From Squalus acanthias (Eukaryota): a DNA stretch of 64,000 bases. The translations under genes and the position numbers were made by a program. Where the stretch lies: assembly GCA_030390025.1 (NCBI GenBank), contig CM059443.1, positions 8,308,001 through 8,372,000 on the forward strand. The letters are read 5' to 3'. Shown piece after piece: positions 18,878-62,395 of this stretch (position 1 is its first letter; every line of letters begins with the position of its first letter). Under the pieces are notes generated by a model, which worked only from the letters and a program-made list of their open reading frames with translations, made no database searches and was not told the DNA's origin.

Positions 18878-21203
18878 GATTGCACCATGTAGAAGTGCCA
18901 GAGATAGGAAAAGAAAAGCTTTATAGTTCACCAAGGGTAAGTACCAGGGAGCTTTTTTGATTTAATTTGTTTGATACTGAAGGTGGACAGATGAATTGAT
19001 TGGCAAAATGTGGAACCAGTGGATGGATGGTTACAGAACTGCTTGGCTGGCGGGGGAGGGGGGGAGCGGGTATGACATTGGTCCATTTGTGAGTGACTTG
19101 CTGAACCTTCGAGCTATCAGGGCATCCCTGGCATCTCAAGCAGCAACGTGATTGGCTGGTCTTGCATTGGGCATCCCATCTTCCTCCCCACCATTGGAAT
19201 CCTCATCAGATGAGGAGACCTGAGTGGCTTTTCCTCCTGGACCTCTAGTCCTCGCTGCGGCGCTACGTTGTGCATAACACCGCACACTACGATTATCCTG
19301 GAGACTCTCGCTGGTGAGTACTGAAGGGTGCCTCCAGACCTGTCCTTGCACCTGAAGCGCAACTTCACCATGCCGATGACTTGCTTGACGACACATTAGG
19401 TTGCCATATGGCTCGCATTGTAGCTCTCCTGGTGTGCATCTGCGCGGTTCCTCAGAGGTGTCATCAGCCAGGTTTGAAGGGGCTATGGCTTGTCGCCTCA
19501 CAACCACCCTTTAAGGATCGTTCCAGGTCAGAACATGTTGGGGATATTGGACTGCCGCAGTATGAAAGCATCATGCCGCCTCCCAGGGAACCTGGCACAG
19601 AACTGCGGTTGCTGAATGCTCCTGGTTGGTTAGAGGGTGCTCTGATTGCCATGTGTGTGTAATCGATTATACCCTGCACCTGTGGGAAGCCAGACAGAGA
19701 TGCAAACCCCAGTGAATGCACATTCTGGCTATTGTCATCACAGGGGAAGTTTATATGCCTCCCAGCCCTGGCAAACAACCTATTCGTCACCTGCCTTATG
19801 TATTTATGTGCAGCCGACCAGGAGACCCTCGCTAGGAGACTGCAGACGTCTGCGACCACCTGACGTGACAATCTCAGCCTTCGGAAGCACTGCTCATCCG
19901 ACAGGTCAAGGAAGCTAAGCCTCTGTCTGTCGACTCTGTTAGGTGGATAGGGCGTTCTGTGAGCTTGTCCCCTCTGTTGTTCCTTTCTCTGCTGGCCACC
20001 TGCAGCTCCGTCGACAGCACACCCTTGCTGATGTTGATCCTCATCTTCCTCAATTCAATCGAGAGCAGCCATGGTGCCACCCATCATGAGCTTCTCCGTA
20101 TGAACACCTCAAGATTCTCCAAATAGCTCTCTCACACCAAGTACTCTCACCAAACCGTGTTCCACAGGGAACTGAGAAAGGACCTGTGAGTGCTGAACCT
20201 TTATTGACATCAGGCCTTTAACCACCCTAACGAACAATGTCACCTCCATTTCCCTGGCAAACCCGGGCTGCGCCAGTAAATTTCAATTCCAGCTCCAAAT
20301 GGCATTACAGGAGCCAGATTTAAATATGTTAACAAGCGCCCCGCCTCTTCATGGCGAGACACTCGGATGCCCCAATATCTGCCACCGTAAAAATGGCAGT
20401 GGGCACCGAGTTGGGATTGGGTTCTGCAAATTTGACATTTTCACCCATGACCCTCTTCCACCCGTCGAGCTGGGGGTAATATCGAGGCCAATGTTTCCGC
20501 ATTTCCCACAGTACAACAGTGACTACACTCCAAAAGTACTTAATTGGCTATAAAGCGCTTTGAGCCGTCCGGTGGTCGTGAAAGGCGCTATAGAAATGTA
20601 AGGGGGAAAAATTGGGTGGCGCCCCTAAAGGTTAGCACCCCTCCGCTGGAAATTCATCAGTAGCGCCCCAAGCAGGAGGTGGGGTGCTACTGGAAGCGCT
20701 CCCCCTCCTCCTTGGGACGCTACAACTGAAGATCGCAGTGTTACGTGCAACAGCGCCATGCGCGTCGGCACGTAGCGCCACGTCATTGCGGGCCTAGCGC
20801 TGCGTGCACCAGGGCCCTGCTGGACCACCGGTGAGCAGGGTGCTGTGAAAACTGCGATCACGGCCGGCACCTCGAAAAAATAAGGGGAAGGGGGCAGGTG
20901 CTGGCAGTCGACCAAAATAAAAATGGCCGCCCGACACCTGCTCCTTTTAATAGCGCCGCCACCGCTGCAAAAAACGCCCCCCTAATGCTGTCAGCGCGAA
21001 CTCCACCATTCCACGGACAGCGGAACAATGCGCAACAAAAATTTATCATTTGATGCGATCTGCCAAGGTTTGTACTTATTAGAAATGTCAACTGTAACAT
21101 TTGTTTAAATTTAACTGAACTATTTTTAAAAATGTCTTATATGCATGGGTGATCTAAAGTGACTTCATTATCCAGGCATCTGAGCTTGTCATAAAATTTT
21201 ATG

Positions 21204-22509
21204 ATGTGGAGATGCCGGCGTTGGACTGGGGTGGACAAAAATGAGAAGTCGCACAACACCAGGTTATAGTCCAACAGATTTATTTAATTTTACAAGCTTT
21301 CGGAGCTATCGCTCCTTCGTCAGGTAAGTTAGCAATGAGAGAATCTCCCAGAATTCACAATTTAAACCCAGACAAAATCTATTCACATTATTCGCTACAA
21401 CAAAGAGCACAGCCAAGACAATGAGATGTGTCCCAGGGGGTCCAGCGTGTCAAACCACCTGCTGGCTGCATATCCTGTCGACAGTTCCGACGGGCCACAG
21501 CGAAAAACCGCATAGACCTCCTCAGAAGACGAACACGGGACACAACCAACAGAGTACCCTACGTCGTCCAGTACTTCCCCGGAGCGGAAAAACTACGCCA
21601 TGTTCTTCGCAGCCTTCAACATGTCATCGATGACGACGAACACCTTGCTAAGGCCATCCCCACGCCTCCACTACTCGCCTTCAAGCAGCCGCCTAACCTC
21701 AAAAGTACCATCGTTCGCAGCAGATTACCCATCTTTCAGGAGAACAGCAACCAAGACACCACACAACCCTGCCACGGCAACCTCTGCAAGACATGCCAAA
21801 TCATGGACACAGATACCATCATTACACGTGAGGACACTACCCACCAGGTACACGGTACATACTCATGTGACTCGGCCAACGTTGTCTACCTGATACGTTG
21901 CAGTAAAGGATGCTCCAGAGCATGGTACATCGGCGAGACCATGCAGACACTGAGACAACGTATGAACGGACACCGCGCAACAATCGCCAGGCAGGAGGGT
22001 TGCCTCCCAGTCGGGGAACACTTCAGCAGCCAGGGGCATTCAGCCTCGGATCTGCGGGTAAGCGTTCTCCAAGGCGGCCTTCGAGATACACGACAGCGCA
22101 AAATCATAGAGCAGAAACTGATAGCCAAGTTCCGCACTCATGAGGATGGCCTCAATCGCGATATCGGGTTCATGTCACGATACAGAACGTGACTTGACAT
22201 CATGGCCGGTCTTCCCAGGTGTTTTTTTTGTTTTTTTTTTTTGTTTTTTTTTTAAAAACACAAGAACACAAATTGACAGGATATGCAGCCAGCAGGTGGT
22301 TTGACACGCTGGACCCCCTGGGACACATCTCATTGTCTTGGCTGTGCTCTTTGTTGTAGCGAATAATGTGAATAGATTTTGTCTGGGTTTAAATTGTGAA
22401 TTCTGGGAGATTCTCTCATTGCTAACTTACCTGACGAAGGAGCGATAGCTCCGAAAGCTTGTAAAATTAAATAAATCTGTTGGACTATAACCTGGTGTTG
22501 TGCGACTTC
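21204..22509 (+). mobile_element. Penelope-like element, 5'-truncated, with inverted pseudo-LTRs and GIY-YIG endonuclease
   Basis: ORF 21428-22192 has NVVYLIRC..C..AWYIGET...LRQRMNGH; 238-bp inverted arms at 21242-21479 and 22275-22512; 15-bp TSD tcataaaattttatg. Confidence 0.93.
22427..22464 (+). ncRNA. Minimal type I hammerhead ribozyme motif (mirror copy on - strand at 21290-21327)
   Basis: TTAC-CTGACGA-A-GGAGC-gata-GCTCC-GAAA-GC-TT-GTAA: CUGANGA/GAAA core, stems I and II, palindromic AGCT stem III, as known for Penelope-like elements. Confidence 0.85.
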
Positions 22510-22708
22510 TCATAAAATTTTATGGCTTTGGGGTTAGCTCCGGGTCATCCATTGTCCTCTTATCTTTACTCCACAGCTTTGAGTTCTGAAATTTCAAATA
22601 GTGAAAAAAACCTGTCTCCAAAGCAGCATGTGGTCCTGTCTCAAAGGCAGGTGGCTGGTCTCTGCAGGAAAAACTGAAGTTTCATTTTATTTTCTGTTTT
22701 CATTTGAG

Positions 22709-24152: not shown

Positions 24153-24468
24153 ACACATTTGACCCATTGTGACCCCACCTCATTGTCTTTGTTGTATTTT
24201 GCTATCGTCTTTGATGTAATGTTTTCCTGACTGACCTGTTTGGACACCATCCACACCTTTGATTGCCGTGATTGTCTCTCTGCCGAGGTGTGATAAAGGG
24301 CAGTTAGAAAGATTAACTGTAGTCGTCTGACATTGTACGCTGCACAGGCATATGCTGTGCCCATATGTATTTCTTCACTTCACCTGACGAAGGAGCAGCG
24401 CTCCGAAAGCTTGTGATTTCAAATAAAGCTGTTGGACTATAACCTGGTGTTGTGCGACTTCTCATTTT
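24153..24468 (+). mobile_element. Penelope-like pseudo-LTR fragment with hammerhead (24380-24416)
   Basis: TCAC-CTGACGA-A-GGAGC-agc-GCTCC-GAAA-GC-TT-GTGA; same 3' end as the 22512 copy; 15-bp TSD tttcactttaaattg. Confidence 0.88.
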
Positions 24469-24540
24469 TTTCACTTTAAATTGTGTGTGTTCCTTTCTTT
24501 GCCTTGCTGGGGGAGGGGGAGGTACAAGGCGACACTATCA

Positions 24541-26719: not shown

Positions 26720-26743
26720 ATGTCGGAGCGGAAGGTGTTGAAT
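26720..26743 (+). CDS. YJU2: YJU2 splicing factor (CCDC94) exon 1
   Basis: MSERKVLN|gtgagt, matching the vertebrate YJU2 N-terminus. Confidence 0.95.
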
Positions 26744-27009: not shown

Positions 27010-27360
27010 TCATCCACCCTTTTGTTTGCCCCCCCCCTTTTTTCCCTCCCAGAAGCTGGCAGCTGTCCTTCATTCTGACAGTGCATTTCACACTTTTAGC
27101 CTCAACCTGTCACATTAACACCTCCTCTTGCCTTGATCATCTCTTAATGTCTCCTTTTGTTCTTTCATCCCCCCCCCCTTTTCCCAGCTTTATCCTTGCC
27201 TTAAATCTATTTCATTTCCTGCTATTTCCAGTTCTGACGAAAGGTCTTCGACCTGAAACGTTAACTCTGTTTCTCTCTCCACGGATGCTGCCTGGCCTGC
27301 TGAGTTTTTTCAGCGTTTTCTGTTGTTATTTCGGATTTCCAGCATCCGCAGTATTTTGCT
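27010..27360 (+). mobile_element. Second Penelope-like family 3' end with minimal hammerhead (27230-27266)
   Basis: AGTT-CTGACGA-A-AGGTC-ttc-GACCT-GAAA-CG-TT-AACT followed by ctctctccacggatgctgcctggcctgctgag; related copies at 51440, 58780 and 60640. Confidence 0.75.
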
Positions 27361-33058: not shown

Positions 33059-33203
33059 GTGTAAGACGTGTGGAGAGTACATCTACAAAGGCAAGAAGTT
33101 CAACGCACGTAAGGAAACTGTACAGAATGAAGTCTACCTGGGACTGCCCATCTTCCGCTTCTACATCAAGTGCACCAGATGTCTGGCAGAAATCACATTT
33201 AAA
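33059..33203 (+). CDS. YJU2: YJU2 exon 3 (zinc-binding CxxC motifs), GC donor
   Basis: cag|(R)[48 protein letters not shown]|gcaagt. Confidence 0.96.
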
Positions 33204-33444
33204 GCAAGTACCTCTACATCTCTCTACTTCATTTGTGTATAGTTCCCTCCCCCCCAGGTACTTCAACCAGGGCAGTCAGGAATGTAACTTTCTCCAGGAC
33301 TACAGTGAATGTTACGCCATATTATCAGCCCCCCCCCCCCCCCCATGTTCTCCACTCCTCTCCTGATGGCATTGATTCTGGCTGGCGTATGTATCCACGG
33401 GTACAGACCATAAGCTGCCTCAGTCAAGTGGCATTCTTCAAGTG

Positions 33445-33710
33445 TGAGAAGTCGCACAACACCAGGTTATAGTCCAACAGTTTTATTTGAAATCACAAGC
33501 TTTCGGAGCGCTGCTCCTTCATCAGGTGAAGTGAAGAGATGTATATCGGCACAGCATATACAGCCGATATACATCTCTTCACTTCACCTGACGAAGGAGC
33601 AGCGCTCCGAAAGCTTGCGATTTCAAATAAAACTGTTGGTCTATAACCTGGTGTTGTGCGACTTCTCACATTTGTCCACCCCAGTCCAACACCGGCATCT
33701 CCACATCATA
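33445..33710 (-). mobile_element. Non-coding palindromic Penelope-derived element with two opposed hammerheads
   Basis: 108-bp inverted arms (33443-33550 / 33563-33670), 12-nt spacer, about 40-nt unpaired tail, 9-bp TSD cttcaagtg. Confidence 0.9.
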
Positions 33711-34324
33711 CTTCAAGTGAACCTAGGTAGCAAGTGTTGTCAGAATATTTGACTGTTGATGCACATCACAGCCGAGTCTGATCCTGTACTCACCTATGTT
33801 AGTCTGTTCACACATGCGCTTGCCAGTACGAGTCCTTGGGTGATCAGGAGCAGGAACCCCTGGCTGATTTTTTCATTCCCTAGCCCGGGATGCTGAGGCC
33901 AGTTGCAGCATCCAAACGGCACCCTGGCTCAGATCGTGCGATTTGACACAGATTCAGCTCAGTGCCTCACTGGATGGCACGTTTACCCAGAGTGAGTGGA
34001 CAAGGATGGCTGATTGTGGGAAGTGGAAAATATTACACCAGTGCAGTAGGCACTGCAATTCTGAGATGGGGATTAAGGCACATTGTTGGAGATTAGCAGG
34101 AGCTTTACCCTGCATCTAGCCTGTACCTTACCTAAACTGGGAGTGATTGATGAGGCGGTGTCGAGGGAGCCTTACTCTGTGTCTAGCTTGTACTTCAACT
34201 GAACTGGGTGCTTGATGAGGACAACACGGGATCAACAAGAAATGTCGTATCCTCATATATTTTGTTCCTGAAAGCCAATTCCTTCTGCACAACCAGAAAT
34301 GATCAGTTATTACAGCCTGGTGAT

Positions 34325-34447
34325 CAATGTTCCCTCTCGTTTTTTTATCGTGCGCGGTCCCTTTAAATTTGCTTCCAGCTGTCTTTTCCAGCTTGTGAGT
34401 GACCTTCGCGGGACCTCCCGATTGGTGCCTCCTTAGGGGGAACATTA
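34325..34447. mobile_element. hAT-type MITE
   Basis: TIRs caatgttccctct / agggggaacatta with a perfect 8-bp TSD ctggtgat. Confidence 0.8.
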
Positions 34448-35297
34448 CTGGTGATCCTCCTGGATTTCAGCTTGGACGGTGTGTCTAACCTGGCAGTTAA
34501 TTAGCCGATACTCAAGCTAATTGCAAATAAATGACTTCACGTAAAATTCTATGTCCAAGCTGCAGTTGTTTAGTGGTTTCTAATGTACAAGGCAAGGTGT
34601 GACTTTTGGGGGTGGAGTGTAAGTTATTTATTTCAGCCCAATGTTTAGTGCTGAGTGTTACTATAGCAACACCCAGTGTCACGGGTCAGGGATACATGTA
34701 GCTTTGACTTTGATCAGAGCTCCTTCAAGAGGCTGCAGAGTCTTGTAGGGGACAGAGGGAGAAAACCAGAGCGAGAGAGAGAGAGCTGCATTGCCCAAAC
34801 TCGCAGTGTCACTTTCAACAAGTTATAATATCCTGTGTGAATGCCAAACATTGGGGTGGGGGAGGAACTAAATGAGACCTGTGAGTCACACATGGGTGGT
34901 CCATAAGTTGGGGCAGTGCCAGCTGTAGGGAACATTGTCTATGGGCTTGGAGCAAACTTTGTGCCAACCCCACAGCTCCAGATGTGTCATGCCCAGGAGA
35001 CAAAAGAATAAGGGACCTAAAAATAGCAGAACGTCTCTTCCCCAAATCCCCAAAAATGGAGAGCTTGAAGAAATGCCCCCAATTTCCGCCCTCCTCTCCT
35101 GAAGGTGCTGACTCCTACTAGTGTGTAGTTTCACAGACACCAGCAGTCTACTCTTGATGGTAATTAAGTCATTTGTTTTGCACTAAGAAACATTTGAATC
35201 ATCTAATAATTTTAATTAAGCAGCGTCAATAATACAGCGAAGTGGGAATTTAGTGCTAAAGAAAATTTAATTATCAGATAATTTAAATTAAGCAACT

Positions 35298-36000
35298 TTT
35301 CTTCTTCTTAGGCAGTCCCTCGGAACCGAGGATGACTTGCTTCCACATTAAAAATGAGTTCGCAGGTGACTGATGAGTCCAATGCGGGACCTACAGTCTC
35401 TGTCACAGGTGGGGCAGACGGTGGTTGGGACAGGGATTGTTCGAGGCTGGCGTAGAATTCCTCTTTGGTCTCGTCTGTGGCCTGCAGTGTTGGGGCGTAC
35501 GCACTGATGACCGTAGCACACTGGTTCCGGGCTAGGGTGAGCCGAAGAGTCATGAGGCGCTCGTTTATACCGCTAGGAGAGTCTCTGAGACGCCCAACTA
35601 GTTCATTTTCTATGGCGAAGCCTACCCCATGGAGACAGCGTTCTTCTTCAGGTTTGCCTTTCCAGAAGAAGGTGTAACCACCACCTTGCTCCTTGAGCTG
35701 GCCTTCCCCTGCCCACCGGGTCTCACTTAGGGCGGCGATGTCAATGTCGAAACGTCTGAGCTCCCGGGCAACGGTAGCAGTATGGCGTTCCGGTCTGTCA
35801 CTGTTGGGGTTGTCCATGAGGGTCCTGACGTTCCAGGTCCCGAACTTCATTTTAAAGGGTGGAGGATGCCTGTGCGTGAATTCTTTTAACGTGGGGTGGC
35901 CGTTGCACACCAGCTACCACACGGGCTTGACAGAGCAAGGTCTTGGTCCAGTGGCAAGGGGATCCAAGACGATTGGAGACCAGGCTCTGCTACAACGGCC
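35298..36000 (-). mobile_element. Internally deleted RTE (BovB-like) LINE
   Basis: APE N-terminus FGTWNVRTLMD..RELRRFDIDIAALSETR..VISAYAPT fused near 35430 to the element's 3' end ...ccgagggactgcct(aag)n. Confidence 0.85.
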
Positions 36001-36089
36001 TAGCACACACACACACAAACATACTGCTACTGTCCTCCTCCCTCCTTCCCGCAGGTCCCCTCTGCAACTTTAAACGAAGAGGAGTAGAC

Positions 36090-37025
36090 GGGAGTGTAGT
36101 AGTTATATTACTGGACTAGTAATCCAGAGGCCTGGGCTAATCCAGAGAATGCGAATTCAAATCCCACCATGACAGTTTGAGAATTTGAATTCAGGTTAAA
36201 AAAACAAATCAATAAAAGTGGCCATGAAGCTGTCATTAAAAACCCAACTGGTTCACTAACGTCCTTTAGGGAAGGAAACCTGTCGTCATTACTCGGTCTG
36301 GCCTATCTGTGACTCCAATCCCACACCAGCATGGTTGACTCTTGAAGTCATGATGCGGAGATGCCGGCGTTGGACTGGGGTGGACAAAAATGAGAAGTCG
36401 CACAACACCAGGTTATAGTCCAACAGATTTATTTAAAATTACAAGCTTTTGGAGCTGTCGCCCCTTCCTCAGGTAAGTTACAATGAGTGAATCTACAATA
36501 TTTCACAGTATTTAAACACAGAAACTGCAGAGATACAATCTTTCAGGGAAGGTGTCCTTACATCAAAGACACACCAAGAGCACAGCCAAGACAATGAGAT
36601 GTGTCACAGGGGGTCCAAGGTGTCAAATCCTGCTGTCTGCAGTTTTTTTTCCATTAAAAAAACAAACCCAAAAAAAAACAGCAGACAGCAGGATTTGACA
36701 CCTTGGACCCCTGTGACACATCTCATTGTCTTGGCTGTGCTCTTGGTGTGTCTTTGATGTAAGGACACCTTCCCTGAAAGATTGTATCTCTGCAGTTTCT
36801 GTGTTTAAATACTGTGAAATATTGTAGATTCACTCATTGTAACTTACCTGAGGAAGGGGCGACAGCTCCGAAAGCTTGTAATTTTAAATAAATCTGTTGG
36901 ACTATAACCTGGTGTTGTGCGACTTCTCATTTTTGACTCTTGAAGTGGCCGAGCAAGCTACTTAAGTGTGACTAGGGATGGGCGATAAATACCAGCCTTC
37001 GCCAGCGATGCCCACCACCCGAGAA
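36090..37025 (+). mobile_element. tRNA-derived SINE hosting the palindromic Penelope insertion
   Basis: Same family as 13750-14150; halves 36090-36348 and 36933-37025. Confidence 0.7.
36349..36932 (+). mobile_element. Non-coding palindromic Penelope-derived element with opposed hammerheads
   Basis: About 254-bp inverted arms (36387-36640 / 36681-36934), T-run/A-run spacer, 5' tail, 14-bp TSD ttgactcttgaagt; + strand hammerhead at 36844-36881. Confidence 0.92.
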
Positions 37026-37559: not shown

Positions 37560-37694
37560 ACCGACCCCGAGAACACAGACTATGTGATGGAGCACGGAGC
37601 GACGCGGAACTTTCAAGCAGAGAAGCTGCTGGAGGAGCAGGAGAAACAAATTCAGAAAGAGCGGGAGGATGAAGAGCTGAACAACCCGATGAAG
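37560..37694 (+). CDS. YJU2: YJU2 exon 4
   Basis: tag|[45 protein letters not shown]|gtatta. Confidence 0.97.
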
Positions 37695-38199
37695 GTATTA
37701 CAGACTATTTACAGCACAGAAACAGGCCATTCAGCCCAACAGGTCCATGCCAGTGTTAATGCACCACACGAGCCTCCTCCCACCCTTCCTTATCTAACCC
37801 CATCACCATATCCTTCTATTCCTTTCTCCCTGATGTGCTTATCTAGGTAGGCTATCACGGGTCAGTGTGCAAGATCTGGGCGTGGTTTTAGAGCCTATTT
37901 AAAATGTTGCTGTTAATGAAGTTTCTTTTGGATGAAGATTTGGAAAGGAAAGTGCGTTGTAAGTACTCAGTGCCATATTTTTCAGGCAGATTTTGAAACA
38001 ATCCAGTCACCATATAAAGGTTTTATTATTCAAAAGCCTGGGTGAAGGGCAAAAGGAGTTGAAGGGATATGAGAACAGGAGGGGGGAAGGAGTCAGTGTG
38101 ATTAGAACTATTTGCTCGTGTGAGGGATAACAGCAACACGGCCGAAGGGCCTGTTTCTCTTCGAAACACAGTATTGCGATGGCCTGTATCAGACGTGTT

Positions 38200-50865: not shown

Positions 50866-51333
50866 ATGGGGCATTCAGCCTCGGATATGCGGGTAAGCGT
50901 TCTCCAAGGCGGCCTTCGAGATACACGACAGCGCAAAATCATAGAGCAGAAACTGATAGCCAAGTTCCGCACTCATGAGGATGGCCTCAATCGCGATATC
51001 GGGTTCATGTCACGATACAGAACGTGACTTGACATCATGGCCGGTCTTCCCAGGTGTTTTTTTTTAAAAAGGCTAACACAAGAACCTACACAGATTGACA
51101 GGATATGCAGCCAGCAGGTGGTTTGACACGTTGGACCCCCTGGGACACATCTCATTGTCTTGGCTGTGCTCTTTGATGTAGGAAAGATTTGAATATATTT
51201 TGTCTGTGTTTAAATTGTGAATTCTGGGAGATTCTCTCACTGCTAAACTTACCTGACGAAGGAGCGAACTGCTCCGAAAGCTTGTAAAATTAAATAAATC
51301 TGTTGGACTATAACCTGGTGTTGTGCGACTTCT
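50866..51333 (+). mobile_element. Penelope-like 3' fragment (GIY-YIG C-terminus, pseudo-LTR, hammerhead at 51249-51287)
   Basis: Highly similar to 22033-22512; 15-bp TSD catatttaggatatg. Confidence 0.92.
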
Positions 51334-51439
51334 CATATTTAGGATATGGAATACAGAACTAAGTACAAATGCAATAAAGCTCTTCACAACTAAACAGCAC
51401 AGGACAATTACCTAAGCGATTGTAAGGCAGCATTCTAAT

Positions 51440-60768: not shown

Positions 60769-61583
60769 GAGCATTTGTTATTTTGTTGGAAGTAGAACAT
60801 TGCCAAATGACAAAGCTTGTGGAGTTGGGGAAGGTGCTCGGTGAATGGCCTGTGTTCCCCTCGTGCGGCTGGAGTTTATTATTTTATTTTTGTGTCGGCC
60901 AATAGAGCCATCTGCTGCCCAAAGGAGCGGGCGTTCTTCCCCTTTAATGAAAAGAGAGAGCAAAGCGAGACATGTGGCTGTGGGGCTGTTGCTGATGTTT
61001 CACACCTTGGAGCTACAGCGAGCGAGAGAGAGAGAGAGAGAGAGACAGCCAGCTCCTGAAACCAGCCTCGCCGAGCTGACTGCAGCCCCCACAGTCTCTC
61101 CAAACTGCAGCCTGCTCAAGTCTGCGGAACATCGCATTTGGAGTTTGAGAGTTTCAACGGGAGACAGACAGGAGGCGAAGGGACGAAGGTTGATGCAAAA
61201 CCGTCACATCACTGCAAGCAGCAGCGAGCAGGTAACCAACTCTCAATCTCAGGACTATTATGGGCTTGTTTTAACACACACAAAAACAAATTCTTAATTA
61301 TTCGTTGCAATCTTTTGTATGCCTATTGTTGAAACTTTTTTTAAAAAAAATTATTAAATTGAAAGTTAAATTAGAGACTTACACTGATTTGGGAAATTGA
61401 TCTGGAATATATTTAATTGAGCAGTTTAATTTTTTTATTGTATTGGCACTGGGAGTTTATTTTCTATGTTCCCTGTGTTTTTATAAGCCGGTTGCTGGGA
61501 CCCCGCAGGTCGGTTTCGCCTGAAATTTAACACAATTTTTTTTTTTTGTTGGTCAGTTTCAAAGCGAATCTCCGGCGCCAGAA

Positions 61584-61919
61584 ATGGCCAAGTGGTTGAA
61601 GGATTACTTGAGTTTCGGGAGCCGCAGGGTCCCTCCTCAGCCTCCCAAGCCCGACTACAGCGAGAGCGAGATCCTCAAAGCCTACCGAGCCCAGAGGAAC
61701 CTGGACTTCGAGGATCCGTACGAGGAGTGCGAGAGCAGAGCCCGGGCGGCTTCGGAGGGCGAGCACCCGCCCGCAGCCTCCTCCCAGCACCAGAAACCAG
61801 CCTCCCCGGACATCAAGTACGTGTCTCCCAAGCACCGGCTCATCAAAGTGGACAGCACCGACCTGGGGAGCCGGGCAAAGATACTGGGCAGCGAGGAGGC
61901 GAAAGGCAAGCCCGAGACT
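61584..61919 (+). CDS. SHD: SH2 domain-containing adapter protein D, first conserved coding exon (gene continues beyond window)
   Basis: MAKWLKDYLSFGSRRVPPQPPKPDYSESEILKAYRAQRNLDFEDPYE...YVSPKHRLIKVD|gtgagt; matches the SHD N-terminus; SHD follows YJU2 in human. Confidence 0.92.
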
Positions 61920-62003
61920 GTGAGTACCAGCGAGACCCCATTGCACTTATTTCAAGCTCCCCTGCTACTGTTACTTGAGGGATGTGTGTGTGTGTGTGTG
62001 TGT

Positions 62004-62395
62004 CTCAGCTGTGGCTCAGTTGGTAGCACTCTGAGTCAGAAGGTTGTGGGTTCAAGTCCCACTCCAGAGACTTGAGCACAAAATCTAGGCTGACACTCCA
62101 GTGCAGTGCTGAGGGAGCGCTGCACTGTCGGAGGTGCCGTCTTTCGGATGAGACATTAAAGCGAGGCCCCGTCTGCCCTCTCAGGTGGACGTAAATGATC
62201 CCACGGCACTATTTCGAAGAAGAGCAGGGGCGTTATCCCAGTGTCCTGGACAATAGTTATCCCTCAATCAACATCTATAACCGATTAGCTGGTCATTAAC
62301 ACATTGCTGTGTGGGAGCTTGCTGTGCGCAAATTGGCTGTAAAACACTTTGGGACGTCCAGTGGTCGCGAAAGGTGCTATATAAATGCAAGTCTT
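62004..62395 (+). mobile_element. DeuSINE
   Basis: Head, Deu core and tail after a (TG)n tract. Confidence 0.85.

Follow-up and report, generated by a model that had tools for sequence, protein, structure and literature searches.

Two hairpin insertions in an intron of YJU2

The window, the 64,000-nucleotide stretch of Squalus acanthias DNA analyzed here (contig CM059443.1 of assembly GCA_030390025.1, positions 8,308,001 to 8,372,000, forward strand), carries in the third intron of the gene YJU2 two insertions that fold back on themselves, element 1 at 33445-33710 and element 2 at 36349-36932. Both are built of head-to-head arms that correspond to the pseudo-LTR (pLTR) end of a Penelope-like element (PLE) and that include hammerhead ribozyme motifs. 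This arrangement raises the question of whether such a hairpin is an element of its own that moves as a unit, or a product that is formed anew at each landing site. We consider it likely that each hairpin arose as a one-off event, a PLE insertion of the Neptune type that was truncated at its 5' end, and that it was probably twin-primed at the landing site and not copied from an existing hairpin. Their parent family can be identified, each of them is bounded by an exact target site duplication (TSD), their centres are unique, and each pair of arms has a single tail.

Element 1 lies between two exact copies of the 9-bp TSD CTTCAAGTG (33436-33444 and 33711-33719, + strand). Counted from the common 3' end, the tail-less arm (33445-33562, - strand), which includes the spacer, is 119 nt long and the tail-bearing arm (33563-33668, + strand) 106 nt, and the unpaired PLE tail, of about 41 nt plus one extra A, follows at 33669-33710 (+ strand). 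Aligned as an inverted repeat, the arms span 33439-33550 and 33563-33674, 112 nt each, and are 96% complementary around a spacer of 12 nt. In another organism, a contig (record 25 of run X7) has 33435 fused to 33711 and thus shows the empty site, the state before the insertion of element 1. Element 2 is flanked by exact copies of the 14-bp TSD TTGACTCTTGAAGT (36335-36348 and 36933-36946, + strand); its unpaired tail (36349-36390, - strand) is followed by the tail-bearing arm (36391-36650, - strand), the shorter of the pair with 260 nt, and by the tail-less arm of 274 nt (36651-36932, + strand), which extends into an A-rich tract of the parent. The outer arms (36385-36612 and 36708-36935) are 228 nt long and were scored as 100% alike, and the inner arms of 41 nt surround an A-rich spacer of 20 nt. 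An earlier note on this DNA had described two separate insertions with their own TSDs, head-to-head arms bearing hammerheads and one tail of around 40 nt on each; these features were all recovered, and the arm sizes that it gave (108 and about 254 bp) are close to those measured here from the common 3' end.

Parent family and abundance

By their sequence, elements 1 and 2 are 3' ends of a Neptune-type PLE. The same 3' ends are found in many copies 300-480 nt downstream of the end of an open reading frame (ORF), among them a third palindrome of the window (21201-22512). The 643-aa frame of this parent matches RVT_1 in Pfam (E 7e-9), and by eye it includes the motif YIDD, the linker CHGNLCKTC and a C-terminal VYLIRC..WYIGET of the GIY-YIG type. 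The order that characterizes PLEs with an endonuclease (EN+), a reverse transcriptase (RT) followed by a C-terminal GIY-YIG, is thus present, the former by its Pfam match and the latter as a motif recognized by eye; no Pfam endonuclease match was obtained with the parent frame or with a 255-aa C-terminal ORF, which matched no family. Neptune PLEs are described as having a CX2-5CxxC linker ahead of the C-terminal GIY-YIG (PMC8557442). The sequence CHGNLCKTC, placed between RT and EN, has this form, and the assignment to the Neptune clade rests on this linker, which Nematis also has, and not on an RT phylogeny. No full-length source copy (pLTR-ORF-pLTR) was retrieved, the longest arm retrieved being 2,478 nt in length and 5'-truncated.

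In the 3.7-Gb genome there are 67,282 copies of an exact 31-mer of the pLTR end, 33,502 exact tail junctions, which mark the tail-bearing ends, and 10,471 short palindromes in one 30-nt size window. Blocks placed arbitrarily in the genome, 1.2 Mb in total, contain 22 insertions of the family, of which 15 are palindromic; hence, the head-to-head hairpin is the usual product of this PLE family. The single arms include five without a tail and two with it, one of the latter cut by the edge of a block. Palindrome sizes are continuous from 70 to 4,391 bp, and the long ones hold RT/GIY-YIG coding DNA.

Some additional features of the family were observed. In the subfamily of element 1, a TATATA box and a TCACT sequence about 22 nt apart precede the pLTR end by around 120 and 90 nt, respectively, and resemble the pair formed by a TATA box and an initiator (Inr) described in PMC3846280. 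In one locus (L129), the sequence continues beyond the tail into ATGACCACTATTGAC, possibly an ORF start placed directly after the tail. The contigs of run X7 gave zero cover over 36464-36625, the subfamily-specific arm region of element 2, and the element 1 type was abundant in them, a hint that the subfamily of element 2 is the younger.

Uniqueness of the centres

A self-contained, non-autonomous hairpin element that moves as a unit, i.e. a propagating inverted-repeat retrozyme, was one of the two origins proposed in the earlier note. The 10,471 short palindromes of a single size class are in agreement with this idea, and so is the fact that certain short junctions recur at many loci. However, with up to two mismatches allowed the centre junction of element 1 has one match in the 3.7 Gb, and that of element 2 also has one genome match with up to one mismatch, so that a self-propagating family of these hairpins is unsupported. 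Each of the look-alikes closest to them has a centre and a TSD of its own, the arm-length pairs are all different in an unselected set of 28 palindromes (56 arms), and the size series runs without interruption into coding DNA. The recurring junctions are very short and are located at microhomologies 70-90 nt from the pLTR end, in the zone immediately upstream of the hammerhead in which arms most often stop (22 of the 56 unselected arms); they are found on different loop-II backgrounds, as repeated formation predicts, and we tentatively read them as such. For elements 1 and 2 the movement of the hairpin as a unit is therefore largely refuted, and we assign it a very low probability. The other proposed origin, as extreme 5'-truncation or inversion products of a PLE, is supported.

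Tails, target sites and the proposed mechanism

The arms of 90 pairs were mapped (L035 and L023 were unmappable), and TSDs and ends were analyzed in 83 of 88 pairs, leaving out five that lacked an exact TSD of at least 8 nt. Exactly one tail was present in 89 of the 90 mapped pairs, the exception being L043, scored as tail-less on both arms. In the 83 pairs the tail measures about 41 nt, and the exact TSDs range from 8 to 15 bp and are centred on 12 bp. The mean target microhomology at the two outer ends is 1.5 and 1.4 nt, compared with about 0.4 nt in a rough control; the two ends are similar, as if both had been primed on RNA. The motif CTT(C/G)AAGT, common to the target sites of elements 1 and 2, was considered and discarded as a general preference, given that the 83 TSDs are merely AT-rich (71%).

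In the twin priming of L1, a single RNA is primed from both strands of the target, and microhomology serves to join the products; the second primer, which anneals at an internal position, gives rise to an inversion without duplication. In contrast, for the PLE studied here both starts would be fixed and 41 nt apart, and the outcome would be an inverted duplication. The PLE protein would cut the two strands of the target at positions some 12 bp from each other, and each freed 3' end would prime reverse transcription on one shared element RNA, one of them at the upstream start site, where the pLTR ends, and the other around 41 nt downstream, at the end of the tail. Both cDNAs would halt at or near a common 5' limit, and would then be end-joined head-to-head through microhomologies of 0-9 nt or short filler; the hammerheads would be passengers from the parent pLTR.

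In agreement with this proposal, it has been reported for a PLE of the anole that the protein cleaves and extends both strands, that two RNA start sites bracket the tail, and a dimer was predicted (PMC11167929); inverted insertions are not discussed in the part of that report available to us. A literature search with thin coverage of subscription papers turned up no work in which PLE palindromes are explained by twin priming.

Copying of the two arms

The lengths of the two arms are coupled (rho 0.75), given that 19 of the 28 unselected pairs differ by no more than 25 nt as compared with 8 in shuffles, a result that fits two passes stopping at the shared 5' limit of one RNA. A different route was used in PMC3846280 to account for head-to-head palindromes, namely self-priming, in which a single cDNA folds back and serves as the template of the inverted arm; the centres would later be reworked by breakage and end joining. 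Coupled arm lengths, arms that are 96-100% alike, and the small microhomologies and filler at the centres are all in favor of this route. Nonetheless, a fold-back copy is unable to add a tail that was absent from the first cDNA, and thus the tail would be expected on the longer arm. Among the 28 unselected pairs, four have equal arms, and the 24 with unequal arms are divided evenly, 12 having the tail on the shorter arm and 12 on the longer one. Elements 1 and 2 both bear it on their shorter arm, as does a third palindrome of the family, located at 21201-22512 of the window with a 12-bp TSD, in which a tail-bearing arm of 238 nt is joined to a tail-less arm of 1,034 nt. The latter includes the C-terminal GIY-YIG part of the parent ORF (21425-22192, + strand), and the two arms are identical over 239 nt.

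The centres show overlaps of 0-9 nt, short filler or captured DNA, and resemble the products of end joining. Unrelated DNA of 135-774 nt was captured between the arms at L039, L052 and L122, and short iterated templated filler is present in some other centres. Perfect centres with zero loop also exist, for instance C5_60M, with arms of 89/89, and L005, centred on ATATAT; their occurrence argues against the fold-back of a single cDNA, as does the equal microhomology at both ends. As a separate observation, the junction of a 2.4-kb palindrome (G000:C1, about 176,300-178,370, L152-L153) starts with CCCTAACCCTAAC, a filler that is telomere-repeat-like.

If the second arm were a DNA copy of the first, few pairs with mixed loop II would be expected. 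A variant with a one-base insertion in loop II was scored in the palindromes genome-wide, and the common form was found on both arms in 2,612, the variant on both arms in 207, and one of each in 487; therefore, 487 of the 694 palindromes that carry the variant are mixed. Thirty mixed loci show an even distribution of the variant, which lies on the arm with the tail in 16 of them and on the other arm in 14. In contrast, at a polymorphic site 36 nt from the end the arms agree in 27 of these loci, when random pairing would leave about half of them differing. From the mixing of loop II on either arm together with the agreement at the -36 site, we conclude that the two arms share one source haplotype, and they appear to have been copied separately, in the same direction. 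In view of these results we consider self-priming unlikely. Arm differences at -50, -28 and -36 within L001-L060 were dropped, because these loci had been picked by their likeness to the private bases of element 1.

Twin priming could also take place on two separate RNAs, one for each subunit of a dimer and mostly from one source locus. A few pairs, inspected by eye, differ at several linked positions of stem-loop II (e.g. C1:8052616 and C1:11851078), the -36 site differs in three of the 30 mixed loci, and the arms of L135 differ at 21 positions over 640 nt. Against this possibility, the two arms have the same base at most diagnostic sites, and the stops of long arms are often only a few bases apart (522/525, 362/375), which is easier to explain with one RNA; we judge the use of two RNAs to be improbable.

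Several points weigh against twin priming on a single RNA. Our proposal was built from sequences and not from biochemistry, and the available in vitro data correspond to a Poseidon-clade element for which the two strands showed no difference in start site (PMC11167929), so that the one-tail rule is unexplained by the anole data. The coupled arm lengths are predicted by self-priming as well, a later asymmetric central deletion could place the tail on either arm, and the pairs with several linked differences point to two RNAs in some events. Mixed loop-II pairs reach 63% of the expectation under fully independent draws, indicating that variant source lineages also exist, and the mixing itself could reflect a hot spot of DNA mutation after insertion, which would need a loop-II rate many-fold above the arm-to-arm divergence of about 1-2%. 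In addition, the microhomology control is approximate, the arms are very unequal in several pairs (2002/58, 2229/177), and seven of the 22 block insertions are single arms.

We lean slightly towards a broader proposal, in which, during the normal integration of PLEs, each cut strand would prime on the same RNA at one of two fixed sites, the inverted pLTR and the tail would represent two first-strand cDNAs joined head-to-head, and a one-base slip at loop II would occur in several percent of the passes. If this were true, twin priming and loop-II slips would account for the unexplained end structure of PLEs and for the hypervariability reported for their hammerheads. The steps of PLE insertion that follow priming are stated to be unvalidated (PMC11167929); the family-wide counts presented here make this open step directly testable, since the young palindromes, which number in the tens of thousands in this single genome, are records that can be counted arm by arm, that separate the insertion models and that lead to exact predictions for an in vitro system already available.

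Hammerheads and the host transcript

Minimal hammerhead cores (CTGANGA..GAAA) are present in three of the four arms of elements 1 and 2. In element 1, the hammerhead of the tail-less arm is intact (33529-33493), and that of the tail-bearing arm, which is in the sense of YJU2, has its core at 33588-33612 and a mutated 3' strand of stem I (GCGA for GTGA), a mismatch that had been overlooked. In element 2, the YJU2-sense core is intact (36848-36873), and the minus-strand core, on the tail-bearing arm, reads CCAAAAG due to a C>T change at a CpG (G12>A, position 36450); this CpG is also mutated in several other copies of the family. The mutated minus-strand core of element 2 had already been noticed in the earlier note. 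A scan of the window with Rfam gave 0 families at the gathering score. Stem I covaries between subfamilies, being TCAC/GTGA in 83 arms and TTAC/GTAA in 43, from which it follows that the hammerhead fold was under selection in the source elements. The motifs are like the minimal type I hammerheads of metazoan PLEs in their core boxes, an extra nucleotide before stem II, a palindromic loop III and a short stem I (PMC4209133).

Folding predicted a full duplex for each of the two elements (-203 and -512 kcal/mol), with both sense ribozymes buried; thus, long duplexes would keep the hammerheads locked in the YJU2 pre-mRNA. This prediction agrees with the masking of the sense ribozyme by its antisense copy put forward in the earlier note, and it is what would favor the idea that the antisense arm was kept, or selected, as a safety catch against cutting of the YJU2 pre-mRNA. 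Nevertheless, the masking is a consequence of the head-to-head geometry in every such insertion, on either strand, and this geometry is the default product genome-wide. Furthermore, the sense ribozyme of element 1 has the stem-I mismatch, and this element is missing from the allele of a relative. Single minimal PLE hammerheads are reported to show no cleavage in vitro (PMC4209133) and cleavage by the anole PLE hammerhead required the PLE protein (PMC11167929), which makes a safety catch unnecessary. We find no evidence of a host function for the duplexes in the YJU2 pre-mRNA, and a selected safety catch seems to us scarcely credible. The abundance of the family implies that introns carry very many long hairpins with nearly perfect pairing, potentially relevant to ADAR or Dicer.

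Comparison with known elements

Insertions of EN+ PLEs have been described as having an inverted 5'-truncated pLTR, a 30-40-bp tail at one end and a TSD (PMC8557442; for Pen2a_Av of Adineta, PMC3846280). In the family studied here, the inverted pLTR is accompanied by one tail of about 41 nt in 89 of 90 pairs, and the TSDs, 9 and 14 bp at elements 1 and 2 and 8-15 bp in the 83 pairs, surround the whole unit; the hammerhead in the pLTR and the strong 5' truncation are also shared. The architecture is therefore already published, and elements 1 and 2 are ordinary as loci. In contrast to the insertions as published in the sources available, no coding DNA is left in these two elements, the palindrome is the majority product (15/22) and the TSDs are centred on 12 bp.

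In Schistosoma, pairs of hammerheads on opposite strands are found 100-700 bp apart, and the variability of the motif is left unexplained in the account consulted (PMC4209133). The arm-to-arm differences in loop II counted here suggest that part of the variability of PLE hammerheads may arise during reverse transcription. The elements are also like non-LTR retrozymes in that they are non-coding, bear hammerheads and are related to PLE pLTRs; however, as these retrozymes are described, they consist of units that follow a family consensus and are repeated directly in tandem (bioRxiv 10.64898/2026.07.22.740005), whereas elements 1 and 2 have inverted arms, centres that are specific to each site and no internal direct repeat.

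Host gene and other features of the window

The exons that flank both elements, exon 3 (33060-33204, + strand) and exon 4 (37560-37695, + strand), match Saf4_Yju2 in Pfam and residues 43-90 of human YJU2. The exons of YJU2 were mapped as far as exon 5. Exons 1 and 2 were located at 26720 and 29754, and these positions place both elements in intron 3, which opens with a GC donor at 33205-33206 (AAA|GCAAGT).

Two single tail-less arms of the PLE family are present on the + strand, at 24342-24470 and at about 50868-51335; the latter holds the last 60 or so codons of the ORF and has the TSD CATATTTAGGATATG. Motifs like the hammerhead core (CTGACGA..CTGAAACGTT) at 27234, 58874 and 60765 belong to a different repeat, unlike the ends of the PLE family. 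Finally, a coding exon that starts with MAKWLKDYLSFG is located at about 61570-62070 (+ strand); it resembles an SH2 adaptor of the SHD/SHE type, which we take to be the neighbor of YJU2 in human.

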